A stretch of 53,531 nucleotides of DNA from Flavobacteriaceae bacterium (GCA_029248455.1 JAQWJH010000042.1:1-53531); one strand, 5' to 3'. Shown: positions 1 to 21,541, numbered from the stretch's first letter. The notes: a model not told the origin generated them from the sequence alone. Numbers and translations are program-made.

Positions 1-38
1 GCTTTTCGTTTTAAACCCTTTTTCTTATACGTTGCCAT
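1..38 (-). CDS. 5-prime fragment (12-13 codons) of a second copy of the TPR/YfgM-like membrane protein encoded at 17386..18147; runs off the window
   Basis: Reverse complement of 1..38 reads MATYKKKGLKRK, versus MATYKKKASKTKKK at 17386. It sits in the same divergent position relative to recF. Confidence 0.45.
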   Translation of the reverse strand, partial: MATYKKKGLKRK

Positions 39-149
39 AATGATTTTTAATAATGGGTAAAAATAAAATTTTATTCCAATGAATTAGAGATAAAAACTAA
101 TTATTTTACATAATTTGCATTGTTTTCTTTAATTTTTTAAAAATAACTA

Positions 150-1238
150 ATGAATTCTCTACATCTAGATAAAATAAGCGTTGTAAACTATAAGAATATT
201 ACAGCGGCTGAATATAATCTTGATAGAAAAATTAATTGTTTTGTTGGGGATAATGGAATTGGAAAAACTAACATATTAGATTCGATTTATCACCTTTGTG
301 CAGGGAAAAGCTATTTTAATTCTATTAGTTCACAAACTATTAATCACGATCAAGATTTTATGTTTATTAATGGAAGTTTTATAAAAAATGATCAAGAAGA
401 AAATTTAATTTGTAGTTTAAAAAGAGGTAAAAAGAAAACATTAAAAAGAAATGGAAAAGTTTATAAAAAACTTTCAGAACATGTAGGCTTAATTCCACTG
501 GTAATGATTTCTCCGTCTGACAGAGATTTAATTCAAGAAGGGAGTTCGTATAGAAGAAAATTTATTGATAGTATTATTTCACAAAACAACAAAGTCTATT
601 TAAATCAAATTATAAATTATCATAAAGTTTTAAATCAAAGAAATGCTTTATTAAAATATTTTAACAGAACTAATTCTTTCGATAAAGTCAATATTAATAT
701 TTACAATAATCAATTATTTGAATTAAGTATACCTATTTACGAAACAAGAAAAATATTTTTCAAAAACTTTTCTCCGGTGTTTTTTAAGCATTATAATTCA
801 ATTAGTCAAAACAAAGAAGAAATAAATATATCTTTTCGAAGTCAATTAGAATTTGAATCTTTAGAGTCATTATTAGAAAATAGTATCAAAAAAGACAGAA
901 TTCTTCAGTACACTAGTTGTGGTATTCATAAAGATGATTTAGTAATGGAGATTAATGGTTATCCAATAAAAAAATACGGCAGTCAAGGTCAACAAAAATC
1001 ATTTTTAATAGCTTTGAAATTAGCACAATTTGATTATTTAAAATCAGAATGTAATTCATCACCAATTTTATTACTTGATGATATTTTTGATAAACTTGAT
1101 AACGGAAGAGTTAAACAATTAATTCAATTAGTTAATAATAATTTATTTGGACAAATTTTTATTTCTGACACAGATTATGATAGAACAAGTAAAATTATTA
1201 GAGAAATTGATTCAACCCATAAAATATTTAAATTATGA
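150..1238 (+). CDS. recF: DNA replication/repair protein RecF (copy A)
   Basis: 362 aa. N-terminal Walker A FVGDNGIGKTNILDSI, SMC-like signature GSQGQQKSF, Walker B ILLLDDIFDKLD. Confidence 0.9.
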   Translation: MNSLHLDKISVVNYKNITAAEYNLDRKINCFVGDNGIGKTNILDSIYHLCAGKSYFNSISSQTINHDQDFMFINGSFIKNDQEENLICSLKRGKKKTLKRNGKVYKKLSEHVGLIPLVMISPSDRDLIQEGSSYRRKFIDSIISQNNKVYLNQIINYHKVLNQRNALLKYFNRTNSFDKVNINIYNNQLFELSIPIYETRKIFFKNFSPVFFKHYNSISQNKEEINISFRSQLEFESLESLLENSIKKDRILQYTSCGIHKDDLVMEINGYPIKKYGSQGQQKSFLIALKLAQFDYLKSECNSSPILLLDDIFDKLDNGRVKQLIQLVNNNLFGQIFISDTDYDRTSKIIREIDSTHKIFKL

Positions 1239-1531
1239 AAAGAAATTTTGAATCAAAAAGTATAAAAAATATTCTCGGAAAATTAATCGATAGCTCCTCA
1301 AATTTAAATTCTGGACTCAATAATATAAAAGTTCAAAAATTGTGGAAAGAAGTTATGGGTTCAAATGTTAATTCTTACACAAAAGAAGTAGTATTAAAAA
1401 ATAAAACATTGTACGTTAATCTGAGTTCATCTATCCTAAGGCAAGAACTTAGTTATGGAAAACAAAAAATAGTTGACTTGTTAAACAAAGAGCTTGGTAA
1501 AAAGATTATTCAGAAAATCGTACTAAGATAG
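1235..1531 (+). CDS. DUF721 domain protein (recF-associated, copy A)
   Basis: 98 aa. ATGA overlap with the recF stop. Position and sequence are typical of the DUF721 gene that follows recF. Paralog at 15891..16184. Confidence 0.75.
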
Positions 1532-1942
1532 AATCTCTTCTTTTGAGAAATGAAACGAACCTTCAATTTCAGCATTTTCATCACTATCAGATCCGTGAAC
1601 TGCATTTTCACCCATGGATGTTGCAAATAAATTTCTGATGGTTCCTTCTGCAGCTTCAGATGGATTTGTAGATCCAATTAATTTTCTAAACTAATTGACG
1701 GCGTTATCTTTTTCTAAAATTGCAGCTACAATTGCCCCCCTGCTCATAAACGAAACTAATTCACCAAAAAATGGACGTTCATTATGAACTTCGTAAAATT
1801 TTTCTGCCTTTTCTTTACTTAACTTAGTTAATTTCATTGCAATGATTTTAAAGCCAGCACCATTAATTTTCTCTAAAATTGCACCTAAATGGCCATTCTC
1901 AACAGCATCGGGCTTAATCATTGTAAAAGTTCTATTACTCAT
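1523..1942 (-). pseudogene. ndk: Nucleoside diphosphate kinase (copy A) interrupted by an in-frame TAG at codon 84 (1691..1693)
   Basis: 83-aa [21 protein letters not shown]... stops at TAG. The same frame continues [10 protein letters not shown]...[10 protein letters not shown]...EEILS for 55 more codons. Total of 139 codons is collinear with the intact copy at 15480..15899. Confidence 0.85.
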
Positions 1943-1959
1943 TTTTTTATAATTTTCTG

Positions 1960-1967
1960 CAAACCTA
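1960..1967 (-). promoter_or_regulatory. Bacteroidetes-type -7 promoter box TAGGTTTG upstream of ndk copy A
   Basis: Perfect TAnnTTTG, 17 nt before the ATG. The identical octamer is conserved upstream of ndk copy B. Confidence 0.4.
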
Positions 1968-2016
1968 AGAAAAAAATGAATTTAATTGTAATGAACATAA
2001 TTTGTATTTTTATAAA

Positions 2017-2781
2017 GTGATAAATGTAACTATTATTGGTACTGGAAATTTAGCATTCCACCTTAGTGAAGCCTTTTCAAAAAATCAAAAGATTAATTTG
2101 GTTGAGATATGTGGAAGAAAAAAGAACTTATCCTCTGAATTTAATAAATTAATCAATTACTCTAACAGTATTTTTAAACTAAAAAAATCAGATTTTTACA
2201 TAATTTGTGTTTCAGATGAACAAATTGAAACTATTTCAAAAAATTTAAATGTCGACGACAGTAGTACAGTCTTGCATTGTTCTGGATCTACACATATAAA
2301 TGAATTATCAAATCATTATTCATATGGTGTATTTTATCCTTTACAGACCTTTAGCATAAAAAAAAGTATAAATTTTAGTAATATTCCTATCATTATTGAA
2401 GGAAATTCTAATAAGAGTTTAAATAAAATAAAAGATTTAGCATTAATGCTTTCTAAAAAAGTATTTGAGACTACTAGTAAACAAAGAATAGCGATTCATG
2501 TTTCTGCTGTATTTACAAACAATTTCACTAATTACATGAGAATTGTTGCAGATGAAATTTTAAAATCAAATGAAATTGATACTAAAATTTTAAATCCTTT
2601 AGCTTTTGAAACATCAGATAAATTAAAATACTTATCATCAAAAGATGCTCAAACTGGACCTGCATTAAGAAATGATTTAAAAACAATAAAAAAACACTTA
2701 AATTTATTGAAAGGAACAGATTATGAAAAAGTTTACAAAATTATTTCAACTGAAATTACAAAACTAAACAATGAACTATAA
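2017..2781 (+). CDS. Rossmann-like + DUF2520 domain protein (copy A); GTG start at 2017 or TTG at 2002
   Basis: N-terminal IIGTGNLAFHL dinucleotide-binding motif and C-terminal HVSAVFTNNF...TGPALRND block. Paralog at 14647..15408 starts at the equivalent position with ATG. Confidence 0.7.
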   Translation: MINVTIIGTGNLAFHLSEAFSKNQKINLVEICGRKKNLSSEFNKLINYSNSIFKLKKSDFYIICVSDEQIETISKNLNVDDSSTVLHCSGSTHINELSNHYSYGVFYPLQTFSIKKSINFSNIPIIIEGNSNKSLNKIKDLALMLSKKVFETTSKQRIAIHVSAVFTNNFTNYMRIVADEILKSNEIDTKILNPLAFETSDKLKYLSSKDAQTGPALRNDLKTIKKHLNLLKGTDYEKVYKIISTEITKLNNEL

Positions 2782-3292
2782 AGAAAAACTTAATAAAATT
2801 GAAACATTCGTTTTTGACATTGACGGTGTATTTACAGACGGAAAAATTGTAGTAGATAGCCAAGGAAAAGAATCTAGATCATTTAATACAAAAGATGGAA
2901 TTGCTATAAAGATTGCAAACGATTTAGGATATAATATAGCTATAATTACAGGTGCTAATAATGATGGCATAAAAGCTAGATTGAACAGACTAGGTATTAA
3001 AAATGTTTTTCTAAACTCAAATGACAAAGTAAAAGACATCTTAAATTACTCAAAAACCAATAATATTAATCTTGGAAAAACTGTTTATATGGGAGATGAT
3101 CTTCCTGACATATTCCCAATGAAATTAGTTTATTTAAAAACATGTCCATATGATGCTGCCCCCGAGGTTAGAGAAATATCTGACTATATTTCCCATAAAA
3201 AAGGTGGAGAAGGATGTGTAAGAGATATTATTGAACAAACACTTAAAGTTCAAAGAAATTGGAATTTTAGCAAAAAAAATCAAAACATTTAA
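2771..3292 (+). CDS. kdsC: KDO 8-phosphate phosphatase, HAD-IIIA family (copy A)
   Basis: 173 aa. HAD motifs FVFDIDGVFTDG, ITG, GDDLPD. Confidence 0.8.
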   Translation: MNYKEKLNKIETFVFDIDGVFTDGKIVVDSQGKESRSFNTKDGIAIKIANDLGYNIAIITGANNDGIKARLNRLGIKNVFLNSNDKVKDILNYSKTNNINLGKTVYMGDDLPDIFPMKLVYLKTCPYDAAPEVREISDYISHKKGGEGCVRDIIEQTLKVQRNWNFSKKNQNI

Positions 3293-3295
3293 TAG

Positions 3296-3883
3296 ATGTT
3301 TTTTGAAAATTTAAAAAACTATAACGTTTTATTAGCTTCAAATTCGAAAAGGAGACACGAACTTCTTAACCAACTTGGTGTTCAATTTAAAATCATTAAT
3401 CAAGAAGTAAATGAGTCTTTTTCAAATGATTTAAAAAGTAGTATGATTACAGATTATTTGGCAAAAAAAAAATCATCAAAATTAGTTAAAAGCTTAAAAA
3501 AAAATGATTTACTAATAACATCAGACACTATAGTTTGGCACAAAAATATTGCTCTTGGTAAACCCAAAAACAGAACTGAAGCATTTAAAATGATCAAATC
3601 ATTAGAAAATTCTTCTCACGAAGTAATTACTTCTTTATGCATATCAACTGTAAATTTTCAAGTAATTGTTAATGAAAAAACTTTAGTATTTTTCGATAGT
3701 ATTGATGATAATGACTTGTTATATTACACAAAAACATCTGATGTTTTAGATCGTGCAGGTAGCTATGGAATACAAGACTATATTGGACATGTTGGTATAA
3801 CAAAAATTGAAGGCTCTTACAATAATGTATTAGGATTTCCAACAAATCTATTTGTAAAGACAATTAAATCTATGAATCTATGA
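3296..3883 (+). CDS. maf: Maf-like nucleoside triphosphate pyrophosphatase (copy A)
   Basis: 195 aa. LASNSKRRHELL, ITSDTIV and RAGSYGIQD motifs typical of Maf/YhdE. Confidence 0.85.
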   Translation: MFFENLKNYNVLLASNSKRRHELLNQLGVQFKIINQEVNESFSNDLKSSMITDYLAKKKSSKLVKSLKKNDLLITSDTIVWHKNIALGKPKNRTEAFKMIKSLENSSHEVITSLCISTVNFQVIVNEKTLVFFDSIDDNDLLYYTKTSDVLDRAGSYGIQDYIGHVGITKIEGSYNNVLGFPTNLFVKTIKSMNL

Positions 3884-3972
3884 AATGGTTAAAACCTTAC
3901 TCTCTAATTTTAATAATAAATTTTTTGTACATAATTTATTTTACAATTTTAACTAACAAATATTTTTTATAG

Positions 3973-5637
3973 ATGTCTAATTTAGATTGGTTAGTTCTTG
4001 TTTGTACAATATCTTTTATAGTTATTTATGGCATATACAAAACTAGAAAGTTCAATACAATTAATGATCACTTAAAAGGTGGTAAATCAGCTAACTGGCT
4101 AACTATTGGTCTTTCCGTTATGGCCACTCAAGCAAGCGCGATAACATTCCTGTCGACTCCAGGTCAAGCTTATGATCAAGGTATGGGGTTTGTACAATTT
4201 TACTTTGGACTTCCTTTGGCTATAATTGTAATTTGCATGGTATTTATTCCTATTTACCACAAACTAAATGTATATACAGCATACGAATACTTAGAAAAAA
4301 GATTTGATAAAAAAACTAGAACACTAGCTGCAATTTTATTTTTAGTTCAAAGAGGTTTAGCAGCTGGAATTACAATTTTTGCTCCAGCTATTATTTTATC
4401 CACTATACTAGGATGGAACTTAAAACTTTTAATACTTACCATTGGATTATTAGTCATAATATACACTGTCAGTGGGGGAACTAAAGCAGTAAGCATTACT
4501 CAAAAACAACAAATGTTTGTAATAATGAGTGGAATGATTATAACTTTTTTTATAATACTTAATTCTCTTCCACCAGATATTAATTTTAGTAATGCTCTTA
4601 GTATGGCTGGAATTGGAGGAAAGATGGAAATTATAAATTTTTCTTTTGATATAGAAAAAAAATATACATTTTGGAGTGGCATTACAGGCGGATTCTTTTT
4701 AGCACTTTCTTACTTTGGAACTGATCAAAGCCAAGTTCAAAGGTATTTGTCTGGTAAGTCAGTTAAAGAAAGTCAATTAGGCTTAATGTTTAATGCTGTT
4801 CTAAAAATACCAATGCAATTTTTTATTCTAATTACCGGGGTAATGGTATTCGTTTTTTTTGAATTCAATGACACGCCCATAAACTTTAATCCACAAGTAA
4901 CTAATTATTTAGAACAGGTTCAAAATCAAGATTATCTTAACGAAAAAGAAAACTTCATTTTTATCAGAGACAAAAAAAGAAGTTTACAGGAAAAATATAT
5001 TAAAAAAATTAAAACGGGAGTTACCAAAAATTTAGAAAAAGAAATAATACAACTTCACAGTAAAGAAAAAGAGATTAGACAAAACGTTAGAGAAATAACT
5101 AATAAAATTGCACCATCATCAATTGAGACAAATGATTTAGATTATATTTTCATTTTTTTTATTATTAACTATCTTCCAAAAGGATTAATAGGCTTGTTAC
5201 TTGCTGTAATTCTAAGTGCAGCAATGTCCTCAACTGCTTCTGAACTTAATGCATTATCTACAACAACTGTAATTGATTTATATAAGAGAAATCAAAAAGA
5301 AATAAAATCTGACAATCATTATTTAAAAGCTTCCAAATGGTTTACTGTCATGTGGGGAATAATCGCAATTATTTTCGCAAGTTTTGGATCGCTATTTGAA
5401 AATTTAATAGAACTTGTAAACATAATTGGGTCTATTTTTTATGGAACTATCTTAGGTATTTTTATAGTTGCTTTCTTTCTTAAAAATGTAAAAGGAAATC
5501 ATGTATTTTATGCAGCGTGCATTTCTCAAATAGCAATATTTTTTATTTACGGATTTATAGGAATAGGTTACTTGTGGTTAAATTTTATTGGAGCTGTTTT
5601 AACGATAACAATTTCAAGCTTAATCAGCAAAAAATAA
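3973..5637 (+). CDS. Sodium:solute symporter family transporter (copy A)
   Basis: 554 aa, many hydrophobic helices, SSS-type N-terminal region (GGKSANWLTIGLSVMATQASAITFLSTPG). Long Lys/Glu-rich hydrophilic insert in the middle. Confidence 0.85.
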   Translation: MSNLDWLVLVCTISFIVIYGIYKTRKFNTINDHLKGGKSANWLTIGLSVMATQASAITFLSTPGQAYDQGMGFVQFYFGLPLAIIVICMVFIPIYHKLNVYTAYEYLEKRFDKKTRTLAAILFLVQRGLAAGITIFAPAIILSTILGWNLKLLILTIGLLVIIYTVSGGTKAVSITQKQQMFVIMSGMIITFFIILNSLPPDINFSNALSMAGIGGKMEIINFSFDIEKKYTFWSGITGGFFLALSYFGTDQSQVQRYLSGKSVKESQLGLMFNAVLKIPMQFFILITGVMVFVFFEFNDTPINFNPQVTNYLEQVQNQDYLNEKENFIFIRDKKRSLQEKYIKKIKTGVTKNLEKEIIQLHSKEKEIRQNVREITNKIAPSSIETNDLDYIFIFFIINYLPKGLIGLLLAVILSAAMSSTASELNALSTTTVIDLYKRNQKEIKSDNHYLKASKWFTVMWGIIAIIFASFGSLFENLIELVNIIGSIFYGTILGIFIVAFFLKNVKGNHVFYAACISQIAIFFIYGFIGIGYLWLNFIGAVLTITISSLISKK

Positions 5638-5713
5638 TTAATAACTAGAAATATAATTTTTATTCATAATCATAATTTGGAATGATCTTTGTTTATATTA
5701 ATAAAAATTAAAC

Positions 5714-6175
5714 TTGAAAATATTTCAAATTAAAACAAAACAAAAACTACCAATTTCAGCCTCTGAAGCTTGGAAGTTTTTGAGCAATCCCAAAAACCTT
5801 GCAGAAATAACTCCGAAATACATGAATTTCAAAATTCTTAGTGGAGCTGATAGATCAATTTTTGCCGGACAAATAATTCAATACAAAGTCACTCCTATTT
5901 TAGGAATAACCTTAAAATGGGTAACAGAAATAACCCATGTAAAAGAGAATGAATATTTTGTAGATGAACAAAGATTTGGCCCCTACTCCTTGTGGCACCA
6001 TAAACACTTTATAAAAGAAATTGATGGTGGCATAGAAATGGAAGATATTGTAGATTATAAAATACCTTTTGGAATTTTAGGGCAAATTGCTCATCCTTTA
6101 TTTATAAAAAATAAGCTCAGAGATATTTTTAAATTCAGAGAAAAAAAACTAGTAAAACTTTTTGGTAAATTATAA
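5714..6175 (+). CDS. SRPBCC (START/polyketide-cyclase-like) family protein (copy A), TTG start
   Basis: 153 aa. The FVDEQRFGPYSLWHHKHFI block is typical of the COG4276-type SRPBCC proteins found next to photolyase genes. The TTG start is conserved in copy B. Confidence 0.65.
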   Translation: MKIFQIKTKQKLPISASEAWKFLSNPKNLAEITPKYMNFKILSGADRSIFAGQIIQYKVTPILGITLKWVTEITHVKENEYFVDEQRFGPYSLWHHKHFIKEIDGGIEMEDIVDYKIPFGILGQIAHPLFIKNKLRDIFKFREKKLVKLFGKL

Positions 6176-6179
6176 AATT

Positions 6180-6878
6180 ATGAAAAAAAATATTTTGTTC
6201 ATTGGAGGTTCATCCGGAATTGGATATGAAACTATTAAACAAATACATACTCAACATAACATTTATGTTGCTAGCAGAACTAATAATAATTTTAAAGATT
6301 TAAAAGTAAATCACATTAAATATGATGTTTTGTGCGATGAATTAAATTCTGAATCAATTCCTGAAGAGTTACATGGTTTTGTATACTGTCCTGGCAGTAT
6401 TAACTTAAGACCTTTTAGAAGCTTAAAACTTAGCACATTTGAGGAAGATTTGAATATAAATTTTTTATCAATGGTAAAATCTCTTCAAAAAGTTATAAAT
6501 AATCTAAAAAAATCTGGAAATTCCAGTGTTGTTTTATTCAGTACAGTTGCTGTAAAAGTTGGAATGCCGTTTCATACTAGCGTTTCAGCATCTAAAGGTG
6601 CAATTGAAGGTTTTGCCAGGTCATTAGCAGCTGAATATGCTCCAGGTTTAAGAGTTAATGTCATTGCACCGTCTCTAACAGATACTCCAATGGCTGAAAG
6701 ATTTTTAAACAATGATTTAAAAAAAGAAAAAGTTGGAGAAAAGCATCCACTAAAGAGGCACGGAAACCCTAATGATATAGCTAACACTGTTGTACATTTA
6801 TTAAGTGACAACAGCTCATGGATTACTGGACAAATATTTGGAATAGATGGTGGAATGTCATCAATTAATCTCTCATAA
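6180..6878 (+). CDS. Short-chain dehydrogenase/reductase (copy A)
   Basis: MKKNILFIGGSSGIG Rossmann motif, SASKGA catalytic region (YxxxK position is S-A-S-K here), PGLRVNVIAP. I chose the start at the MKKN aligned with copy B. Confidence 0.85.
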   Translation: MKKNILFIGGSSGIGYETIKQIHTQHNIYVASRTNNNFKDLKVNHIKYDVLCDELNSESIPEELHGFVYCPGSINLRPFRSLKLSTFEEDLNINFLSMVKSLQKVINNLKKSGNSSVVLFSTVAVKVGMPFHTSVSASKGAIEGFARSLAAEYAPGLRVNVIAPSLTDTPMAERFLNNDLKKEKVGEKHPLKRHGNPNDIANTVVHLLSDNSSWITGQIFGIDGGMSSINLS

Positions 6879-8177
6879 TTGAAAAAAGAAATTTCAATTT
6901 TTTGGTTTAGAAGAGATCTAAGAATAGATGACAATAAAGGTTTATACTATGCCTTAAAAGATAATGACTCAGTGCTTCCAATTTTTATATATGATAAAAA
7001 CATATTAGATAAATTAAAAAAAATTGATCATAGAATTGATTATATAAATTATTCGATTTCAGAAATAAATAATTCACTTTCAAAAAAGAATAAGTCAATT
7101 TCTAGTTTTTATGGATATCCAAAGGAAGTTTTTTCTAAACTAATAAATAAGTTTGATGTAAAAAAAGTATATGTTAACAGGGATTACACACCCTACTCAA
7201 TCAAAAGAGATCTTGTTATCCAAAAATTGCTGGAAAATAATAAAATACAATTTTGCGATTTCAAAGATCATGTTTTGTTCGAAAAAAATGAGATTGTAAA
7301 AGATGATGGAACACCTTATAAAGTATACACTCCTTTTTCAAAAAAATGGATTAATAAAATGAATGAACAAGGTGTTGCTAGTTATCCATCAGAAAATTTA
7401 ATTGATAAATTACTAATTAATAATAATGAATTTGAAACAAAATCTATTGGATTCACAAAATCTGAGATTAAGTATTTAAAAAGTGACACATCTAATGAAA
7501 TAATTAAAAATTACGAATCAAAAAGAAATTTCCCAAGTTTTAACGGAACATCAAAAGCAGGTGTGCAATTAAGATTTGGAACTATTAGTACAAGAAAATT
7601 AATAACGAAAGCGTGTAAATCAAACAACAATACGTTTTTAAAAGAATTGATTTGGAGAGAGTTTTTTCAACAAATTCTTTATCATTTCCCAAAAACAGTT
7701 ACAGAAAGTTTTAAACCAAAATATGAAAGAATAGAATGGTTAAATAATGAAAATGATTTCAAAAAATGGTGTAAAGGTAAAACTGGATACCCCTTAGTTG
7801 ATGCTGGTATGAGAGAATTAAATAAAACTGGATTCATGCACAACAGAGTTAGAATGGTTGTAGGTAGCTTTTTATGTAAACATTTACTTATTGATTGGAG
7901 ATGGGGAGAAGCATATTTTAGAGAAAAATTATTTGATTATGAGACTGCTAGTAATGTTGGTAATTGGCAATGGGTTGCAGGATGTGGTGTAGATGCAGCA
8001 CCATACTTTAGAATATTTAATCCGCACGAGCAACTAAAAAAATTTGACAAACACTTTGAATACGTAAAAAAATGGGTTCCTGAATTTGAAAGCAATAAAT
8101 ATATAAATCAAATAGTAGATCATAAAAAAGCCAGAGAAAGATGTCTATCAACTTATAAAAAAGCTTTAAACAATTGA
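6879..8177 (+). CDS. Deoxyribodipyrimidine photolyase / cryptochrome-DASH family flavoprotein (copy A), TTG start
   Basis: 432 aa. FWFRRDLRIDDN N-terminal motif. FAD-binding region TGYPLVDAGMRELNKTGFMHNRVRM...WQWVAGCGVDAAPYFRIFNP. Confidence 0.85.
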   Translation: MKKEISIFWFRRDLRIDDNKGLYYALKDNDSVLPIFIYDKNILDKLKKIDHRIDYINYSISEINNSLSKKNKSISSFYGYPKEVFSKLINKFDVKKVYVNRDYTPYSIKRDLVIQKLLENNKIQFCDFKDHVLFEKNEIVKDDGTPYKVYTPFSKKWINKMNEQGVASYPSENLIDKLLINNNEFETKSIGFTKSEIKYLKSDTSNEIIKNYESKRNFPSFNGTSKAGVQLRFGTISTRKLITKACKSNNNTFLKELIWREFFQQILYHFPKTVTESFKPKYERIEWLNNENDFKKWCKGKTGYPLVDAGMRELNKTGFMHNRVRMVVGSFLCKHLLIDWRWGEAYFREKLFDYETASNVGNWQWVAGCGVDAAPYFRIFNPHEQLKKFDKHFEYVKKWVPEFESNKYINQIVDHKKARERCLSTYKKALNN

Positions 8178-8388
8178 ATATAAATTTAATTTTTCAAAAT
8201 CAACTTTTCGAAAAAAGTATAGCTTTTAAGAACTCAAATATCACTTTTTTGATTGAATAATATTTTTTGTTTATGAAATTTATATTGTTTAAAAAATAAA
8301 TATTCCTCAATTAAATAGGTGTTATTTAAATTTTCAATTAATAAACTTTTTTCAAAAAGTTGATTTGGAAAAATAATATTAATATTAC

Positions 8389-9690
8389 TCAATTGTTTAG
8401 GGCTTTTTTATAGGTTAATAAACATCTTTCTCTAGCATCTTTGTGAATTACAATTGGTTCAACATACTGAACAGACTCGAACTCTGGAACCCATTTTTTG
8501 GTATAAATTAAATTTTTATCAAACTTTTTAATTTGTTCATGAGGGTTAAAAATTCTAAAGTAAGGTGAAGCATCTACGCCACATCCAGCAACCCACTGCC
8601 AATTACCAACATTACTTGCAGTTTCGTAATCATATAATTTTTTTGCAAAATATGCTTCTCCCCATCTCCAATCAATTAGTAAGTGTTTGCATAAAAAACT
8701 TCCCACCAACATTCTAACTCTATTGTGCATAAACCCTGTTTGATTTAACTCTCTCATTCCAGCGTCCACTAGTGGGTATCCTGTTTGTCCAGAACACCAT
8801 TTTTTAAATTGATTTTCATTATTTAACCATTCAATCCTATCATATTTTGGTTTAAAACTCTTGTTTATGGTGTGTGGATAATGAAATAATATTTGCTGAA
8901 AAAATTCTCTCCAAACTAATTCTTTTAAAAAAGTTTTATTTTTAGAGGCCTCAGCTTTAACAATCATTTCTCGAGTGCTAATTGTTCCAAATCTTAAATG
9001 AAGTCCAATTTTTGAAGTTCCATTTACATAGGGGAAATTCCTAGTTTTCTCGTAGTTGTTTATTGTATCACTGGATAAATTTAAATTCAAAGGACTTAAT
9101 ACACTTTTTTCAAAACCGATTTCTTTTAAGGAAAGAAATCTCCTTTTTTCATTAAAGAACTTGTGTATATATTTTTCTGAATTAAAAAAATCGATTTTAT
9201 TTTCAGACATTTTTATCAACCATTTTCTTGAAAAAGGAGTATAAACTTTATAGGGTGTATTATCATCTTTCACAACCTCATATTTTTCGAATAAAACATG
9301 ATCCTTATAACTATTAAAATCTATATTATTCACTTTAAGGAGTTCTTCAACTTTTTTATCCCTTTTAATGGAGTAGGGGGTATAATCTTTGTTGGAGTAT
9401 ACTTTAGTAACATTATATTTTTTAATTAATTCTGAAAAAACTTTCACAGGTTTTCCATAATATATAGAAATAGATTTATTATTTTTTTTCAGTAAATCAT
9501 TCAATTTTTTTAATGAATATTCAATAAAGTCCACCCTGTGGTCTGATTTGTTAAGTTTATCAAGTGTATTTTTATCATAAATAAAAATTGGTAAAACTTT
9601 ATCGTTTTCATTTAATGCATGAAATAATCCTGCATTATCTTTCAAACGGAGGTCTCTTCTAAACCAAAAAATTACTAAATTATCTTTCAA
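8389..9690 (-). CDS. Deoxyribodipyrimidine photolyase / cryptochrome-DASH family flavoprotein (copy B), TTG start overlapping the SDR stop (TTGA)
   Basis: 433 aa with the same motifs as copy A. Both copies end KKALNN. Confidence 0.85.
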   Translation of the reverse strand: MKDNLVIFWFRRDLRLKDNAGLFHALNENDKVLPIFIYDKNTLDKLNKSDHRVDFIEYSLKKLNDLLKKNNKSISIYYGKPVKVFSELIKKYNVTKVYSNKDYTPYSIKRDKKVEELLKVNNIDFNSYKDHVLFEKYEVVKDDNTPYKVYTPFSRKWLIKMSENKIDFFNSEKYIHKFFNEKRRFLSLKEIGFEKSVLSPLNLNLSSDTINNYEKTRNFPYVNGTSKIGLHLRFGTISTREMIVKAEASKNKTFLKELVWREFFQQILFHYPHTINKSFKPKYDRIEWLNNENQFKKWCSGQTGYPLVDAGMRELNQTGFMHNRVRMLVGSFLCKHLLIDWRWGEAYFAKKLYDYETASNVGNWQWVAGCGVDASPYFRIFNPHEQIKKFDKNLIYTKKWVPEFESVQYVEPIVIHKDARERCLLTYKKALNN

Positions 9691-10388
9691 TTAGACGTGT
9701 TTAATGTAGACATTCCCCCGTCAACACCCAATATTTGCCCAGTAAGCCAAGAACTTTCTTCACTCAATAAAAAAGCAGTTGAATTGGCTATATCAATTGC
9801 ATTACCGTGTCTTTTTAAGGGGTGTCTATGTCCCACCTTTTCTTTTTTAAGGTCATTATTAAGAAACCTACTAGCTAAAGGAGTGTCAGTAAGAGAGGGT
9901 GCTATTACATTTACCCTAATATCAGGGGCAAATTCTGCAGCTAATGATTTAGCAAATCCTTCAATAGCTCCCTTTGATGCAGAAATACTACTATGAAATG
10001 GCATACCAATTTTTACAGCAACTGTACTGTACAAAACAATACTAGAGCATTCTGATTTTTTTAAATTATTTAAAACTTGTTGTAATATCTTAACCATTGA
10101 TAGAAAATTAATGTTCAAATCATCCTGAAAAGTATTAATTTTTAATCCTCTAAAAGGTCTTAGGTTGATGCTGCCTGGACAGTACACAAATCCATCTAAA
10201 ATTTCAGGAATTTCATTTAAATCTAACTCATCATTCAATACGTCAAATTTCAAGTGCTTTACATCTAAATTTTCTAGATTTTCATTTGTTCTACTAGCAA
10301 CAATTAGATTACATTTTTCATGTAATAATTTTATCGTTTCTAAACCAATTCCGGTGGAACCACCAATAAATAAGATATTTTTTTTCAT
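9687..10388 (-). CDS. Short-chain dehydrogenase/reductase (copy B)
   Basis: 233 aa, MKKNILFIGGSTGIG, collinear with 6180..6878. Confidence 0.85.
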   Translation of the reverse strand: MKKNILFIGGSTGIGLETIKLLHEKCNLIVASRTNENLENLDVKHLKFDVLNDELDLNEIPEILDGFVYCPGSINLRPFRGLKINTFQDDLNINFLSMVKILQQVLNNLKKSECSSIVLYSTVAVKIGMPFHSSISASKGAIEGFAKSLAAEFAPDIRVNVIAPSLTDTPLASRFLNNDLKKEKVGHRHPLKRHGNAIDIANSTAFLLSEESSWLTGQILGVDGGMSTLNTSN

Positions 10389-10390
10389 AA

Positions 10391-10852
10391 TTAAATTTTT
10401 CCAAATAATTCTATTAATTTATTTTCTCTGTACTTAAAAATTTGCTTTAATTTATTTTTCACAAATAAAAAATGCGCTATTTGTCCAATAAAGCCAAAAG
10501 GAATTTTATAATCAACTATGTCTTCCATTTCTATTCCTCCATCAATCTTTTTAATAAAATGTTTATGATGCCACAATGAATAGGGTCCAAATCTCTGCTC
10601 ATCAACAAAATACTCCTTTTCTTTTACATGTGTTATTTCAGTAACCCATTTTGTTGAAATTCCTAAAACAGGTGAAACTTTATATTGAATAATTTGACCA
10701 GAGAAAATAGACCTATCAGCGCCACTCATTATTCTAAAATTCATTTCTTTTGGAGTGATTTCTTTTAAATTTTTAGGATTACTAAAAAAATTCCATGCTT
10801 TTTCAACAGGAATTGGTAATTGTTGTTTGGTTTTAATTTGATATAATTTCAA
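10391..10852 (-). CDS. SRPBCC family protein (copy B), TTG start
   Basis: 153 aa, about 80% identical to 5714..6175 by hand count (31 differences). Confidence 0.65.
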   Translation of the reverse strand: MKLYQIKTKQQLPIPVEKAWNFFSNPKNLKEITPKEMNFRIMSGADRSIFSGQIIQYKVSPVLGISTKWVTEITHVKEKEYFVDEQRFGPYSLWHHKHFIKKIDGGIEMEDIVDYKIPFGFIGQIAHFLFVKNKLKQIFKYRENKLIELFGKI

Positions 10853-10946
10853 TGATAAATTTTAAAAACCAAATTTAACCTTTTTAAAAATTATAACAAT
10901 CCTATTAAAATAGATTTAATAAATTTGACTATTCAAAATACTTATT

Positions 10947-11792
10947 ATGAAAAATAAATTAGCATTAACATTAATATTCATTTCTTATTTGTCCTATTCT
11001 CAATTACTGTCACCCGTTGCTAGTCCTAAAACAAAAATTATTCAAAAAGTCGGTTTGGTTGATATAAATTTGGAATACTCGAGACCATCTAAAAAAAATA
11101 GAAAAATATTTGGAGGATTAGTTCCTTATGGAAAGATTTGGAGAACAGGCGCAAATAATCCAACTTTAATTTCATTTTCAGAGAATATTAAATTAAATAA
11201 TAAATTAATTGAAAAGGGTGATTACCACATTTACTCAGTACCCAGTGAATCAAAACTAGATCTAATTATTTATGAAAAAACTGATGCTTGGGGATCACTT
11301 TCAGATTTTGATGAGTCCCTAATTAAGGCTAGGGTTGTAAGTAATTTTATAGATTTACCTTTAACAGTAGAGACATTTACTATTGCGTTTAATGATATTT
11401 CAAATAATGGAGCTTCCTTAATTATTAATTGGGATAATAAACAAGCAGTTTACATGATCGATGTTTTAACAAAAGGTAAGATGATTGAAAATATTAACAA
11501 AACCTTATCAGAAAACCCTTCAGCTAATGATTATCGTAAAGCTGCAGTATACTATTATGAGGAAAAAATAGATATTGCTAAAGCAGTAAAGTGGATTGAC
11601 AGTGCGTTTAAAGATACAGACAATCTTAAATATTGGCAGTTAAGATACAAGGCACTTATTTATGAAAAAGCGGGAAATATTATAAAAGCAAAAGAATATG
11701 CCGAAAAGGGTTTTAAAAATGCAAAAGAAATTAATACTATAGATGGAATAAATGCTTTAGAAATTGTAGTTGAAAGATTAAATAATTATTAA
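10947..11792 (+). CDS. Secreted DUF2911 domain protein with helical TPR-like C-terminal region; present only in arm B
   Basis: Signal-peptide-like N-terminus MKNKLALTLIFISYLSYSQ. YSRPSKKNRKIFGGLVPYGKIWRTGAN block is characteristic of DUF2911. Opposite orientation to its neighbours. Confidence 0.7.
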   Translation: MKNKLALTLIFISYLSYSQLLSPVASPKTKIIQKVGLVDINLEYSRPSKKNRKIFGGLVPYGKIWRTGANNPTLISFSENIKLNNKLIEKGDYHIYSVPSESKLDLIIYEKTDAWGSLSDFDESLIKARVVSNFIDLPLTVETFTIAFNDISNNGASLIINWDNKQAVYMIDVLTKGKMIENINKTLSENPSANDYRKAAVYYYEEKIDIAKAVKWIDSAFKDTDNLKYWQLRYKALIYEKAGNIIKAKEYAEKGFKNAKEINTIDGINALEIVVERLNNY

Positions 11793-11793
11793 T

Positions 11794-13455
11794 CTATTTT
11801 TTAATAATATTTGAAAGTAAAATTGTTAAAACTGCACCTACAAAATTTAACCATAAATATCCAATTTCTGTAAATCCGTAAATGAAAAATATTGCTATTT
11901 GAGATAGGCATGCTGCATAAAATACATGATTTCCTTTTACATTTTTAAAAAAGAAAGCAACTATAAAAATACCTAATATAGTTCCGTAAAAAATTGACCC
12001 AATTATATTTACTAGTTCAATTAAATTTTCAAATAATGATCCAAAACTTGCAAAAATAATTGCAATTATTCCCCACATGACAGTAAACCATTTTGAGGCT
12101 TTTAAATAATGATTATCAGATTTTATTTCAATTTGATTTCTTTTATATAAATCAATTACGGTTGTCGTAGATAAAGCATTAAGTTCAGAAGCAGTTGAAG
12201 ACATCGCTGCACTAAGAATTACAGCAAGCAACAAACCTATTAATCCCTTTGGAAGATAGTTAATAATAAAAAAAATGAAAATGTAATCTAAATCATTAGA
12301 TTCAATTGAGGATGGTGCTACTTTATTAGTTATTTCTCTCACATTTTGTCTAATTTCTTTTTCTTCATCGTGAAGTTGTATTATTTCTTTTTCTAAATTT
12401 TTTGAAACTCCAGTTCTAATCTTTTTAATATATTTTTTTTGTAAACTTCTTTTCTTTTCCCTAATAAAAATGAAGTTTTCTTTTTCATTTAAATAATCTT
12501 GATTTTGAACCCGTTCCAAATAATTAGTCACCTGAGGATTAAAGTTTACCGGTGTGTCATTGAACTCAAAAAAAACGAATACCATTACGCCGGTAATTAA
12601 TATAAAAAATTGCATTGGTATTTTTAAAATAGCATTAAATAATAAACCTAATTGACTTTCCTTAATTGATTTTCCAGATAAATATCTTTGAACCTGACTT
12701 TGATCAGTTCCAAAGTAAGAAAGTGCTAAAAAGAATCCTCCCGTGATGCCACTCCAAAAAGTATATTTTTTTTCTATGTCAAAAGAAAAATTTACAATTT
12801 CCATCTTTCCTCCGATTCCTGCCATTGTTAAAGCATTACTAAAATTAATGTCTGGTGGAAGAGAATTAAGTATAATGAAAAAGGTTATAATCATTCCACT
12901 CATTATCACAAACATTTGTTGCTTTTGAGTAATACTTACTGCTTTAGTCCCTCCACTAACAGTGTATATTATGACTAATAATCCAATTGTAAGTATTAAA
13001 AGTTTTAAGTTCCATCCAAGTATTGTAGATAAAATAATAGCAGGGGCAAAAATCGTAATTCCAGCTGCCAATCCTCTTTGAACTAAAAATAAAATTGCAG
13101 CAAGTGTTCTAGTTTTTCTATCGAATCTTTTTTCTAAGTATTCATATGCTGTGTAAACTTTTAGCTTGTGGTATATTGGAATAAAAACCATACAAATAAC
13201 AATGATTGCTAGAGGTAAACCAAAATAAAATTGTACAAATCCCATACCATCATTATAAGCTTGACCTGGTGTCGATAGGAATGTTATGGCACTAGCTTGA
13301 GTAGCCATAACCGAAAGACCAATAGTAAGCCAGTTAGCTGATTTACCCCCCTTTAGGTGATCTTTAATAGTATTGAATTTTCTAGTTTTGTAAATACCAT
13401 AAATGACTATAAAAGATATTGTACAAATAAGAACAAACCAATCTAAATTAGACAT
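11794..13455 (-). CDS. Sodium:solute symporter family transporter (copy B)
   Basis: 553 aa, about 94% identical to 3973..5637 by hand count (about 33 differences). Confidence 0.85.
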   Translation of the reverse strand: MSNLDWFVLICTISFIVIYGIYKTRKFNTIKDHLKGGKSANWLTIGLSVMATQASAITFLSTPGQAYNDGMGFVQFYFGLPLAIIVICMVFIPIYHKLKVYTAYEYLEKRFDRKTRTLAAILFLVQRGLAAGITIFAPAIILSTILGWNLKLLILTIGLLVIIYTVSGGTKAVSITQKQQMFVIMSGMIITFFIILNSLPPDINFSNALTMAGIGGKMEIVNFSFDIEKKYTFWSGITGGFFLALSYFGTDQSQVQRYLSGKSIKESQLGLLFNAILKIPMQFFILITGVMVFVFFEFNDTPVNFNPQVTNYLERVQNQDYLNEKENFIFIREKKRSLQKKYIKKIRTGVSKNLEKEIIQLHDEEKEIRQNVREITNKVAPSSIESNDLDYIFIFFIINYLPKGLIGLLLAVILSAAMSSTASELNALSTTTVIDLYKRNQIEIKSDNHYLKASKWFTVMWGIIAIIFASFGSLFENLIELVNIIGSIFYGTILGIFIVAFFFKNVKGNHVFYAACLSQIAIFFIYGFTEIGYLWLNFVGAVLTILLSNIIKK

Positions 13456-13544
13456 CTACAAAAAATATTTATTAGTTAAAATTGTAAAAAAAATTATATA
13501 CAAACAATTTATTATTAAAATTAAGGAGTAAGATTTTAACCACT

Positions 13545-14135
13545 TCATAGATTCATAGAATTAATTGTTTTTACAAATAGATTTGTTGGAAAGCCTAAAA
13601 CGTTACTGTATGAACCTTCAATTTTTTTTATGCTGACATGTCCAATATAGTCTTGTATTCCATAGCCGCCTGCTCTGTCTAATACATCAGATGTATTTGT
13701 ATAGTATAACAAATCATTTTGATCAATACTATCGAAATAAACTAAAGTCTTTTGATTAACAATTACTTGAAAATCCACAACTGAAATACAAATAGATGTA
13801 ATTACTTCATGAGAAGAATTTTCAAGTGATTTGATCATTTCAAATGCTTCGTTTCTATTTTTGGGCTTTGCAAGAGCAGTGTTTTTGTGCCATACTATTG
13901 TATCACACGTAATAAGTAAATCATTTTTTTTTAAGTTTTTGATTAATGGGGATGATTTTTTTTTAGCTAAATAATCTGAGATCTCGCTGCTTTTTAAGTC
14001 ATTTGAAAAAGACTCGTCTATATCTTGATTAATAATTTTAAACTTAACACCAAGTTGGAAAAGAAGTTCATGTCTTCTTTTCGAACCTGAAGCTAATAGA
14101 ACGTTATAGTTTTTTAATTTTTCAAAAAACATCAA
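13545..14135 (-). CDS. maf: Maf-like nucleoside triphosphate pyrophosphatase (copy B)
   Basis: 196 aa, collinear with 3296..3883. Confidence 0.85.
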   Translation of the reverse strand: MMFFEKLKNYNVLLASGSKRRHELLFQLGVKFKIINQDIDESFSNDLKSSEISDYLAKKKSSPLIKNLKKNDLLITCDTIVWHKNTALAKPKNRNEAFEMIKSLENSSHEVITSICISVVDFQVIVNQKTLVYFDSIDQNDLLYYTNTSDVLDRAGGYGIQDYIGHVSIKKIEGSYSNVLGFPTNLFVKTINSMNL

Positions 14136-14660
14136 TTAAATGTTTTGATTTTTTTTACTAAAATTCCAATTTCCCTGAACTTTAAGTGTTTGTTCAATAA
14201 TATCTCTCACACATCCTTCTCCACCATTTTTATTAGAAATATAATCAGATATTTCTCTTACTTCAGAAACAGCATCAAATGGACATGTTTTTAAGTAAAC
14301 TAATTTCATTGGAAAGGTGTCAGGAAGGTCATCTCCCATATAAACAGTTTTTTCAAGATTTATATTGTTAGTTTTGGAGTAATTTAGAAGGTCTTTTACT
14401 TTGTCATTTGAGTTTAGAAAAACATTTTTAACACCTAGTCTATTCAATCTAGCTTCGATACCTTTATTATTAGCACCTGTTATAACAGCAATATTATAAC
14501 CTAAGTCATTTGCTAATTTTACAGCTATTCCGTCTTTTGTGTCAAATGATCTGGATTCATTTCCGTGGCTATCAACCATAATTTTTCCGTTGGTGAAAAC
14601 ACCATCGATATCAAAAACAAATGTTTTAATTTTATTGAGTTTTTCTTTATAGTTCATCAT
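14136..14660 (-). CDS. kdsC: KDO 8-phosphate phosphatase, HAD-IIIA family (copy B)
   Basis: 174 aa, FVFDIDGVFTNG and GDDLPD motifs. Confidence 0.8.
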   Translation of the reverse strand: MMNYKEKLNKIKTFVFDIDGVFTNGKIMVDSHGNESRSFDTKDGIAVKLANDLGYNIAVITGANNKGIEARLNRLGVKNVFLNSNDKVKDLLNYSKTNNINLEKTVYMGDDLPDTFPMKLVYLKTCPFDAVSEVREISDYISNKNGGEGCVRDIIEQTLKVQGNWNFSKKNQNI

Positions 14661-15408
14661 TTAGTTTTATAATTTCAGTTGAAATAGTTTTATAAATCTT
14701 CTCATATTTAGATCCTTTTAATAAACTTAAGTGTTTTTTTATAGTTATTTTATCATTTCTAACTGCAGGTCCTGTTTGAGATTTTTTTGCTGTCAAATGT
14801 TTTAGTTTATCACATGTTTCTTGAATTAATGGTTTAAGTATTTGGGGATCTATATTTTGAGATTTCAATATATTCTCAGAAATAACGTTCATATAATTTC
14901 CAAAATTATTTGAAAAAACTGCACTTATGTGAATTAAAGTTCTTTGATCACTATTACACACTATTACATTTTTTGATAATTGTAAGCTAATTTTTTTAAT
15001 TTCATTTAAAACTTTTTTTGAGTTGGCATCTATTATTATAGGAATATTTTTAAAAGACAGCTCTCTATTTTTGCTAAAAGTTTGCAAAGGATAAAGTACT
15101 CCATGATTCTTATGTTTAGATAAAATATCTAATCTTGTTGAACCAGAAGTATGCACAATTATGGAATCCTTAAAAATTAATTTATCACTAATTTCTAGTA
15201 TTGCATCATCACTTACACATATTATATAAAAATCAGCTTTTTTTAACTCGTCTAAATTATTAGTGTAAACTATTTTTTGATTAAAATTTTCAGGTAATTT
15301 TTCAATTCTGCCAAATAATTGCAGAAGATTCAATACTTTGCTATTTTCAATAGTCCTGCAAAGGTGATGAGAAACATTTCCAGTTCCTATAATAACAATA
15401 TTCAACAT
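14647..15408 (-). CDS. Rossmann-like + DUF2520 domain protein (copy B)
   Basis: 253 aa, [21 protein letters not shown]...TGPAVRND. Confidence 0.7.
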
Positions 15409-15457
15409 TTACCAAAAATACAAATAAAGTGAGTGATGTTGTAGTAGAATTTTTTAT

Positions 15458-15465
15458 TAGGTTTG
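15458..15465 (+). promoter_or_regulatory. Bacteroidetes-type -7 promoter box TAGGTTTG upstream of ndk copy B
   Basis: Perfect TAnnTTTG, 14 nt before the ATG at 15480. Same octamer as in arm A. Confidence 0.4.
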
Positions 15466-15479
15466 CAAAAAAAATTATA

Positions 15480-15899
15480 ATGAATAACATAACTTTTACA
15501 ATGATTAAGCCTGATGCAGTTGAAAATGGACATATTGGAGCTATTTTAGAAAAAATAAATTCAGCTGGGTTTAAAATAATAGCAATGAAATACACAAAAT
15601 TGAGTTTAGAAAAAGCTCAAAAATTTTATGAAATTCATAAAGATCGTCCTTTTTTTAATGAATTAGTAACTTTTATGAGTAGGGGACCAATTGTTGCTGC
15701 TATTTTAGAAAAAGATAATGCTGTGGAAGATTTTAGAGAATTAATAGGATCAACCAATCCCGCAGATGCTAAAAAGGGAACTATTAGAAACTTGTATGCT
15801 ACATCAATGGGTGAGAATGCCGTTCATGGATCTGACAGTAATGAAAATGCAAAAATTGAAGGAACATTTCATTTTAGTGATTCCGAAATATTATCTTAA
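15480..15899 (+). CDS. ndk: Nucleoside diphosphate kinase (copy B, intact)
   Basis: 139 aa from [18 protein letters not shown], active-site NAVHGSDS. The ORF-track start at 15429 is an unsupported upstream extension. Confidence 0.9.
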
Positions 15900-16184
15900 T
15901 ACTATCTTATTTATCAAATTCTTTCCAATTTCTTCGTTAATTAAATCAACAATCTTTTGTTTACCATAACTTAATTCTTGCCTAAGAACGGAAGATGATA
16001 GACTAACATAAAGAGTTTTTTTTTTTAAATATATTTCTGTTGTATAGGAATTAACATTAACACCCATAGTTTTTTTCCATAAACTTTGAATTTTAACATT
16101 ATTTAAACCGTCATTTAAAGAATTTTTATCTATTAAATTATTTAGGACCGATTTTAGACTTTTTATTTCAAAATTTCTCTTCAT
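15891..16184 (-). CDS. DUF721 domain protein (copy B)
   Basis: 97 aa, collinear with 1235..1531. Same 9-nt convergent overlap with ndk. Confidence 0.75.
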
Positions 16185-17269
16185 AATCTGAACATTTTAT
16201 AAGTTGAGTTAATTTCTTTAATAATATTTTCAGTTCTTTTATAATCAGTATCAGATATAAATAATTGTCCGAACTCATCATCATTTACCAAGTTTATAAG
16301 TTCTTGAACTCTTTTATTATCTAATTTATCAAAAATATCATCTAAAAGTAAAATAGGTGATGAGTTACACTCAGTTTTTAAATAATCAAACTGAGCAAGT
16401 TTAAGTGAAATAAGAAAAGATTTCTGTTGTCCTTGACTACCTAATTTTTTGATAGGGAAACCATCAATTTCAAATATCATATCATCTTTATGTATTCCGC
16501 AGCTTGTATATTGAATTATTCTGTCTTTTTCTAAACTATTTTGAAGTAACGAATCTAATGATTCATGATTAAGTTGGCTTTCGTAAGAAATATCAACCTT
16601 TTCTTTATTTTGACTTATTGAATTATATCTGTTAATGAACACAGGAACAAAATTTTTAAAAAACTCTATTCTTTTTTTATATATAGGTATGCTTAAGTCT
16701 GACAATTGATTGTCATAAACCTTGAGAATAGATAAATCAAATGTGTTATTTTTTTTAAAATATTTTAAAAGTGCATTTCTTTGAGATAATATTTTTTGAT
16801 AACTAATTATTTGGGTTAAGTAAATTTTATTATTTTGAGAAATTACATTATCAATAAATTTTCTTCTATTTGAGCTACCTTCTTGAATTAAATCTCTGTC
16901 GTAAGGTGAAATCATAACTACAGGTATTAGGCCTATGTGATTTGAAAATTTTTTATATAATTTACCATTTCTTTTAATTGTCTTTTTTTTCCCTTTTTTT
17001 AAACTATTGATAATATTTTCATTCTTATTACCCTTTTTAAAATTACCTTCAATTAACATGAATTCTGCACTATGATTAATTGATTGTGAGCCAATTGAAT
17101 GAAAACAACTTTTTGTCATTGCTAAATGGTATATTGAATCAAGGACATTAGTTTTACCGACCCCGTTGTCGCCAACAAAACAATTAATTTTTTCATCTAA
17201 ATTAAATGATTGATTATTAAAATTTTTGTAATTGACAAGAGTTAGTTGGTTTAGAATTAGACTTTTCAT
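16181..17269 (-). CDS. recF: DNA replication/repair protein RecF (copy B)
   Basis: 362 aa, FVGDNGVGKTNVLDSI, GSQGQQKSF, ILLLDDIFDKLD. About 70% identical to copy A (110 differences by hand count). Confidence 0.9.
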   Translation of the reverse strand: MKSLILNQLTLVNYKNFNNQSFNLDEKINCFVGDNGVGKTNVLDSIYHLAMTKSCFHSIGSQSINHSAEFMLIEGNFKKGNKNENIINSLKKGKKKTIKRNGKLYKKFSNHIGLIPVVMISPYDRDLIQEGSSNRRKFIDNVISQNNKIYLTQIISYQKILSQRNALLKYFKKNNTFDLSILKVYDNQLSDLSIPIYKKRIEFFKNFVPVFINRYNSISQNKEKVDISYESQLNHESLDSLLQNSLEKDRIIQYTSCGIHKDDMIFEIDGFPIKKLGSQGQQKSFLISLKLAQFDYLKTECNSSPILLLDDIFDKLDNKRVQELINLVNDDEFGQLFISDTDYKRTENIIKEINSTYKMFRL

Positions 17270-17385
17270 TTATAATTTTATATCAAATATTTAATAACCA
17301 TCATGCAAATTATATAAAATAATTAGTTTTTTATCCTTAATCATTAGAATAAAATTTTATTTTTACGCAATTATTAAAATGTAAT

Positions 17386-18147
17386 ATGGCAACCTATAAA
17401 AAAAAGGCTTCTAAAACTAAAAAGAAAGGATTTGATTCGTCAAAAAAAGAAAGTACAACTGCAGAGGTTTTTGAAACGTTAGATGTAAGTGCTTCAAGAT
17501 CTGAACGTTTTGTTGCTAAATATCAAAATTATATAATTGGTTTTGTATCCTTAGCTGTAATAGTTGTTTTAGGATATTTGGGATATGAGAATTTAATACT
17601 TAAACCAAAGTCTGAAGAAGCAAATAATGAACTTTTTACAGCTCAAAATTATTTTAACCAAGCATTAAATGGCTCCGAAAAAAGTGATTCTTTATTCCTA
17701 TTGTCATTGAATGGTGGTGATGGTAAATATGGTTTTTTGGATATTATTAAAAATTATTCAGGCACCAATGCTGCCAATCTTTCGACTTACAGTGCTGGAA
17801 TGGCTTATTATAATTTAAATGATTTCGAAAATTCGATTGATTATCTTCAAAATTTTAATTCCGATGATAAAGTTTTAAAATCTTTAGCGGTTGGTGTTAT
17901 TGGCGATTCATTTGCCGAACTTAATCAGTTGGATGATGCTTTAGATGCATATAGATCCGCTGCAAACTTAAGTTCAAACAGTTATACCTCTCCAAAATTT
18001 TTATTAAAAGCAGGAAATATAGCCTCTCTTCTTGGAAGAAAATCTGAGGCTTTAAAGTACTACAATAGAATTAAAGATTTGTTTCCAAAATCGCCTGAGG
18101 CAACCTTAATTGAGGTTCAAATTGGAAAGAATTCTACAAAAAATTAA
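17386..18147 (+). CDS. Membrane-anchored tetratricopeptide-repeat (YfgM-like) protein
   Basis: 253 aa. Lys-rich N-terminus, one TM helix (IIGFVSLAVIVVLGYLGY), then helical repeats with TPR-like A/Y/L spacing. Confidence 0.6.
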   Translation: MATYKKKASKTKKKGFDSSKKESTTAEVFETLDVSASRSERFVAKYQNYIIGFVSLAVIVVLGYLGYENLILKPKSEEANNELFTAQNYFNQALNGSEKSDSLFLLSLNGGDGKYGFLDIIKNYSGTNAANLSTYSAGMAYYNLNDFENSIDYLQNFNSDDKVLKSLAVGVIGDSFAELNQLDDALDAYRSAANLSSNSYTSPKFLLKAGNIASLLGRKSEALKYYNRIKDLFPKSPEATLIEVQIGKNSTKN

Positions 18148-18149
18148 AA

Positions 18150-19053: not shown

Positions 19054-19055
19054 AG

Positions 19056-21352: not shown

Positions 21353-21367
21353 TAAATTTAATGTTTG

Positions 21368-21452: not shown

Positions 21453-21464
21453 AAAATTAGGAAG

Positions 21465-21537: not shown

Positions 21538-21541
21538 TTAG

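Follow-up and report, generated by a model that had tools for sequence, protein, structure and literature searches.

The window analysed here is the 53,531-nt stretch JAQWJH010000042.1:1–53531 (GCA_029248455.1, Flavobacteriaceae bacterium), at the left end of which ten housekeeping genes, from recF to a photolyase gene, occur twice in two arms arranged tail to tail on opposite strands. Comparison of its sequence with related loci leads us to regard the contig, with a probability of about 0.94, as an inter-population fold-back chimera, namely a mosaic of three co-existing, related marine Flavobacteriales populations in the order A(+)|C(+)|B(-). Each arm is ca. 99–99.5% identical to a different population that carries the block in single copy with a normal continuation, and for this reason the mirror-image block is an assembly or library artefact of a known kind, the inter-population chimeric contig, and not a biological feature. 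A preliminary description of the sequence had left two explanations standing. One of them, a chimera joining the same locus from related genomes, proved right in kind, except that three populations take part instead of two. The other, an ancient inverted segmental duplication, is not supported: the junction was found nowhere else among the collections and loci searched, the arms diverge to the same extent as populations A and B, and the gene following the block, the cryptochrome/photolyase-related (cryptochrome-like) gene DPRP, is incomplete on either side of the join. The arm-by-arm comparison with relatives, which the same description had proposed, assigned the left arm to A and the right arm to B, each at ca. 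99% identity.

The mirror-image block

The mirror was measured by blastn of the left part of the window against the reverse complement of the right part, and a repeat finder was concordant. The reverse-complement diagonal, on which the original observation depended, is present as two collinear blocks (3–8273 against 17422–8290, 74–80% nucleotide identity), far above chance. The first block pairs 3–5647 with 17422–11783 at 80.1% nucleotide identity over 5669 columns, and the second pairs 5702–8273 with 10864–8290 at 74.0% over 2592 columns. Together with a mechanical list of open reading frames (ORFs), these results confirm a ten-gene block mirrored in two arms, and the partner genes and ORF lengths are as previously listed, with the exception of the ndk gene of arm 1. 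The same ten genes are indeed found in both arms; what had been missed is that arm-1 ndk is broken and that arm 2 has an extra DUF2911 gene. ORFs are intact in nine of the ten gene pairs. The arms had been taken to end at the photolyase stops (8177 and 8389). The mirror actually extends beyond both stops to 8273 and 8290, which is 8 nt on each side of the symmetry axis, because each arm still includes the beginning of the gene that follows, DPRP.

Between the arms, the amino acid identity is 69.6% for RecF, 72.2% for DciA/DUF721, 81.3% for Ndk, 54.9% for the DUF2520 protein, 87.9% for KdsC, 85.1% for Maf, 94.2% for the Na+/solute symporter (SSF), 79.7% for the SRPBCC protein, 73.7% for the SDR protein, and 69.0% for the photolyase. 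The values estimated earlier by hand for RecF, Ndk, SRPBCC, photolyase, and symporter agree with these measurements. At the nucleotide level the divergence is uneven, with 85–89% identity across kdsC-maf-SSF versus 65–78% elsewhere. The GC content is 23–30% in 1-kb windows across both arms. A compositional contrast between the arms was looked for as well, and the GC and skew profiles were uninformative.

Left arm

The left arm (1–8195, plus strand) corresponds to population A. It matches ten A loci (L001–L010) without gaps, and has 33 mismatches to L001 over 8195 nt (ca. 99.6% identity). These loci come from independent metagenome assemblies and were found via the exact photolyase protein of arm 1, for which at least 23 contigs from a large number of independent assemblies carry the gene; ten of them were read. 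All ten run in one direction and have no mirror, the gene order being crtI-crtB-crtZ-ribH-TPR-recF-dciA-ndk-DUF2520-kdsC-maf-SSF-SRPBCC-SDR-photolyase-DPRP-DUF2805-aroA. In the window, the A arm starts at position 1, broken inside the TPR gene, of which the first 38 nt (minus strand) are present. It continues with recF, dciA, ndk, DUF2520, kdsC, maf, SSF, SRPBCC, SDR, and photolyase, and ends 18 nt past the photolyase stop. The following stretch, 8196–8273, has 18 mismatches to A over 78 nt, and base-by-base comparison of eight A loci gave one and the same set of mismatches.

The ndk gene of arm 1 has an in-frame TAG at 1691–1693 on the minus strand (E84 to stop, caused by C to A at 1693), and only an 83-aa ORF is left. 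The codon is GAG in each of the eight A loci compared, and the stop belongs to a set of 12 substitutions found within 1233–8195 in this contig only. It may reflect a consensus error due to low coverage, as could be expected of a contig end with poor support, or else a pseudogene of this strain.

Right arm and remainder of the contig

The right arm corresponds to population B. The B loci were matched via the exact SDR protein of arm 2, which is indexed in 72 collection blocks; like A, B is represented on at least 23 contigs. Ten loci were read, comprising TARA and JGI contigs of up to 662 kb, ENA sequence, and an NCBI metagenome-assembled genome (MAG), and L011–L019 were aligned. Window 8256–20388 is the minus strand of L011–L019 (12133 to 1) at 98.8–99.3% identity. 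It begins with the truncated 5′ end of the B-type DPRP (8256–8388, minus strand, the first 133 nt), which is followed by the block copy (8389–17423, minus strand) with photolyase, SDR, SRPBCC, SSF, maf, kdsC, DUF2520, ndk (itself on the plus strand), dciA, and recF. Positions 17424–20388 are likewise collinear with L011–L019. All ten B loci have a single unidirectional block as in A, with DUF2911 in addition, and then DPRP-DUF2805-aroA. In these loci DPRP starts at 11997 and encodes 490 aa.

Further B-type contigs (L103–L106) were retrieved via the exact 268-aa SIS-domain protein of the window, and 25778–46616 is collinear with them at 98.1–99.5% identity. Five other exact proteins of arm 2 and the rest of the window (photolyase, RecF, DUF2911, and the 668-aa and 165-aa products close to the right end) had no entry in the collection, from which the source contig is thus apparently absent. 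One of these contigs belongs to MAG GCA_029243205.1, the same MAG that provided the arm-2 locus L018. The comparison with B-type contigs covers 8256–20388 and 25778–46616. From 8256 to at least 46616 the window is the true population B chromosome in minus-strand orientation, and this probably holds to the contig end. Beyond the block, the B part (17424–53531, minus strand) carries TPR, ribH, crtZ, crtB, crtI, tRNA genes, and housekeeping genes.

The DUF2911 gene (10947–11792, plus strand, 281 aa) is present in the B arm only, and a PF11138 gene occupies the same place in all B loci. The mirror has a gap at ca. 10865–11782 (ca. 0.9 kb), where arm 2 has DUF2911 and arm 1 is without it. This is an ordinary difference in gene content between B and A. 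Judged by the larger spacing between SSF and SRPBCC, the gene is likely also present in L023, L024, L025, L028, and L030. It is absent in A and, again judged by spacing, in L026 and L027, being a variable accessory gene in an otherwise rigidly syntenic block.

Structure of the join

A short stretch of a third population lies between the two arms. A 36-mer taken from the sequence after 8195 led to two contigs of population C, which is represented by L021 and L022 and is ca. 88% identical to A and ca. 74% to B. The C sequence of 8197–8257 is also carried by L029, a GTDB species representative (MAG W_MB115) by which C is placed taxonomically. Per-base comparison gave the contig order A(+)|C(+)|B(-), with C matching through 8257 and B(-) from 8256. 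Up to ca. 8152 the window follows A only; C (L021/L022) differs from it at 8153 and upstream, and A differs from 8196 on. The switch from A to C hence falls in 8154–8195 (plus strand), a zone of 42 nt identical in A and C. The C segment at 8197–8257 (plus strand) lies within the first 84 nt of C's DPRP and is identical to L021, L022, and L029 at 61 of 61 positions, versus 47 of 61 for A and 45 of 61 for B. In the C loci this stretch is found in a normal setting, leading from photolyase into DPRP. Position 8196 is an A in the window and a C in both populations A and C, and k-mers across it are absent from all fetched loci; strain variation may explain this base, or an erroneous consensus at the A/C switch.

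The strand flips from C(+) to B(-) at 8256–8257. The exact overlap there is 2 nt (AA), and the arms are imperfectly complementary, at 77% over 97 nt around the flip. The plus side retains the first 84 nt of DPRP and the minus side the first 133 nt, the two flip positions being homologous and ca. 50 nt apart. As both fragments are the start of one gene, a residual mirror persists across the axis. None of the 22 A, B, and C loci contains a k-mer of 15–31 nt that spans the flip. The collections scanned for the junction were the GTDB species genomes (genome_contigs) and the JGI metagenome contigs (metagenome_contigs), and a 57-mer across the flip had no match in either, a result that agrees with an artefact but does not prove it.

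The sides of the breakpoints are thus near-identical to different sources (A ca. 99.5%, C 100%, B 98.8–99.3%), and the sources continue differently from the window. All 10 A, 10 B, 2 C, and 8 GTDB loci proceed from photolyase through a full DPRP to DUF2805 and aroA. Neither the two collections nor the fetched loci reproduced the junction in an independent assembly.

A long perfect palindrome at the axis was considered as the cause of a de Bruijn fold-back, and none exists. The longest exact inverted match in 8181–8390 is 13 nt (8374–8387), AT-rich, self-overlapping, and trivial. The natural 5′ ends of DPRP were also examined for a stable hairpin. The folds are weak (-2.6 to -7.4 kcal/mol) and not clearly better than those of shuffled sequences, with DNA folding z-scores of 0.4 to -2.1; hence we claim no hairpin-driven mechanism.

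Divergence of the arms and probable gene exchange

Synonymous divergence (dS) between the arms is ca. 1.4–1.8 in seven of the ten gene pairs, 1.10 in DUF2520, and 0.55–0.61 in kdsC-maf-SSF, and the ratio of nonsynonymous to synonymous divergence (dN/dS) is 0.06–0.33. For A and B genes outside the block (crtB, ribH, TPR, DPRP, DUF2805, aroA, fmt, DUF179, and a class IV aminotransferase), dS is 1.05–1.8 and dN/dS is 0.05–0.35, which is the same range as for the arms. Compared in sequence, the two copies are orthologues of different species (about 72–89% nucleotide identity) and not paralogues, and this is the reason why the arms look old and constrained. The earlier view that the arms are old and under purifying selection is borne out by these ratios; it holds for orthologues of two species, not for retained paralogues. 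The most diverged block gene is DUF2520, with 55% amino acid identity between A and B and a dN/dS of 0.33.

The relatives compared were eight GTDB species representatives of the clade, which consists of marine Flavobacteriales MAGs and single-amplified genomes (SAGs) and includes MAG-121220-bin8, on contigs of up to 858 kb. All eight have the block once, followed by DPRP-DUF2805-aroA. Among the matches listed from GTDB species genomes, the symporter identity to the window is 88% or lower.

The segment 2273–5617, paired with 11811–15155 and containing kdsC-maf-SSF, is far less diverged (85–89% nucleotide identity, dS 0.55–0.6) than the rest (65–78%, dS 1.1–1.8). In SSF, A is nearer to B (89–91% nucleotide identity) than to its otherwise much closer sister L027 (80–83%, versus 91–96% elsewhere). 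This incongruence suggests past recombination or gene transfer between lineages A and B in the kdsC-maf-SSF region.

Proposed origin of the join

Read from the right, the contig follows the B(-) chromosome to 133 nt into DPRP and there changes to the other strand of this locus. It then takes up 61 nt of C and, via the 42 nt common to A and C, passes into 8.2 kb of A until its end inside A's TPR gene. We infer that the join most likely goes back to a chimeric DNA molecule or read, because the exact overlap is 2 nt and the natural A, B, and C sequences all lack the junction k-mers. Possibly a C(+) end, nascent or single-stranded, mis-primed on the nearly complementary B(+) stretch, as in artefacts of strand-displacement amplification or end repair, and the assembler might have used the resulting chimeric read as a bridge over a tangle of strain variants. 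Graph assemblers typically hop between close relatives inside shared stretches, and the A-to-C switch within 42 shared bases would be such a graph-path hop.

A chimeric molecule need not have existed if an assembler, scaffolder, or gap closer linked ends from different populations purely in silico. The A-to-C hop in 42 shared nt is typical of graph traversal, and inter-species misassemblies are common. This route is possible but rather doubtful for the strand flip, where the exact overlap is 2 nt and k-mers of at least 15 nt across 8255–8258 are in no fetched A, B, or C sequence. A de Bruijn path requires every k-mer to be in the reads. An in-silico join would be a special case of the favoured explanation and not a real competitor, and the verdict of an artefact is the same.

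Alternative biological explanations

Very improbable is a real hybrid chromosome, in which the chromosome of a B cell would have gained an inverted insert of at least 8.2 kb of A/C-type DNA beside the cell's own homologous locus, by illegitimate recombination (microhomology or fold-back) inside DPRP. Such a cell would be a merodiploid in which ten housekeeping genes are accompanied by the orthologues of another species. The arms do come from different lineages and meet at 2 nt of microhomology, and the lineages do exchange DNA, as seen in SSF, where A–B identity exceeds A–sister identity. However, the event needs an inverted insertion at a near-homologous point (within ca. 50 nt) with no homology to guide it, and the incoming DNA must already have been an A/C mosaic. 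It would also disrupt DPRP and split the B photolyase from DPRP-DUF2805-aroA, an order kept in every relative. The junction is unique to this contig in the two collections scanned, and the A arm stands at the window edge, as an artefact predicts.

A genuine ancient inverted segmental duplication in one genome, in which purifying selection would have preserved ten housekeeping genes in two copies, has the collinear ca. 8.2-kb mirror, the intact ORFs in nine of ten pairs, and the low dN/dS on its side, but has next to no probability, given that assemblies of A and B, each ca. 99% identical to its arm (up to ca. 99.5%), have the block once with normal downstream genes, that 8 of 8 related species representatives are single-copy, that arm dS is not below the species-level A-versus-B divergence outside the block but equal to it, that 61 nt at the axis come from a third population, that the conserved DPRP is truncated on both sides of the join, and that the junction was found in neither collection scanned.

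Several points weigh against the interpretation as an inter-population chimera. The absence of the junction from the two collections is weak evidence if this mix of populations is rarely sampled. The artefact is deduced indirectly, by sequence comparison. The window is probably, but not certainly, the whole contig, since 53,531 is not a round number, and position 1 is its presumed end. Moreover, chimeras arising in multiple displacement amplification (MDA) are mostly intramolecular, and the join here is between populations, so that the in-vitro route is only one possibility.

Annotation of DPRP, DUF2520, and tRNA genes

In the A loci, DPRP is called either as 489 aa, with a start overlapping the photolyase stop, or as 440 aa (starts at 11296 versus 11443 in L001). 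Up to L001 11462, the assemblies with one or the other call do not differ in the stretch compared. In L005, DPRP is split into 372 and 77 aa. The chimeric join sits in the stretch exclusive to the long form. Translation shows this 5′ stretch to be conserved as coding in all three populations, in favour of the long form. In L004 (A assembly GCA_900632135.1), ca. 85 nt are missing around 5600–5630 (window 2393–2508) compared with the window and the remaining A loci, and DUF2520 is split there into 145 and 81 aa. On the B part of the window, two tandem tRNA-Lys(UUU) genes with 93% identity come after a tRNA-Leu(GAG) gene (21367–21614, minus strand). This ordinary tandem pair accounts for the only other repeat of the window.

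Consequences for genome analysis

The importance of the contig lies in quality control, not in biology. Taken at face value, it provides false duplicates of the single-copy genes recF, ndk, maf, and kdsC, inflates estimates of bin contamination and heterogeneity, and gives a streamlined marine flavobacterium the false appearance of an ancient palindromic duplication. The remedy is to split it at 8195/8196 and 8255/8256, and to assign 1–8195 to another population. A diverged palindrome, unlike an identical one, is no argument against an artefact when related populations share a sample. Arm-by-arm comparison with independent assemblies resolves such cases quickly.

Comparison with known systems

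The block resembles genuine bacterial inverted duplications and chromosomal palindromes in that a short spacer separates two collinear arms that lie on opposite strands. Such systems have both arms in a single genome, and different assemblies reproduce their junction; neither applies here.

Inverted joins primed at complementarity of at least 2 bp are the dominant chimeras of strand-displacement amplification and are usually intramolecular, the intermolecular ones being rarer (Lasken & Stockwell 2007, PMC1855051). The join resembles these MDA chimeras in that it is inverted, close to the original position, accompanied by a small intervening loss, and has complementarity of at least 2 bp (PMC1855051). 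The arms of MDA chimeras, however, are mostly intramolecular and identical, whereas here they come not from the same molecule but from populations C and B, which are ca. 74% identical, and the rarer intermolecular event would be needed.

Benchmark metagenome assemblies suffer most often from inter-species misassemblies (metaMIC preprint). The contig is similar to them, i.e., to the inter-species translocation or inversion of MetaQUAST and metaMIC, in that its parts are ca. 99% identical to different populations, that a breakpoint lies in shared sequence (the 42 nt common to A and C), and that each source has its own normal continuation. It differs from the ordinary case in that three populations are involved and in that the overlap at the flip, 2 nt, is too short for a usual k-mer overlap. 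It further differs in that the strand flips near the homologous position, giving a diverged palindrome that mimics an ancient inverted duplication. This unusual appearance arises because the two strands come from different species.

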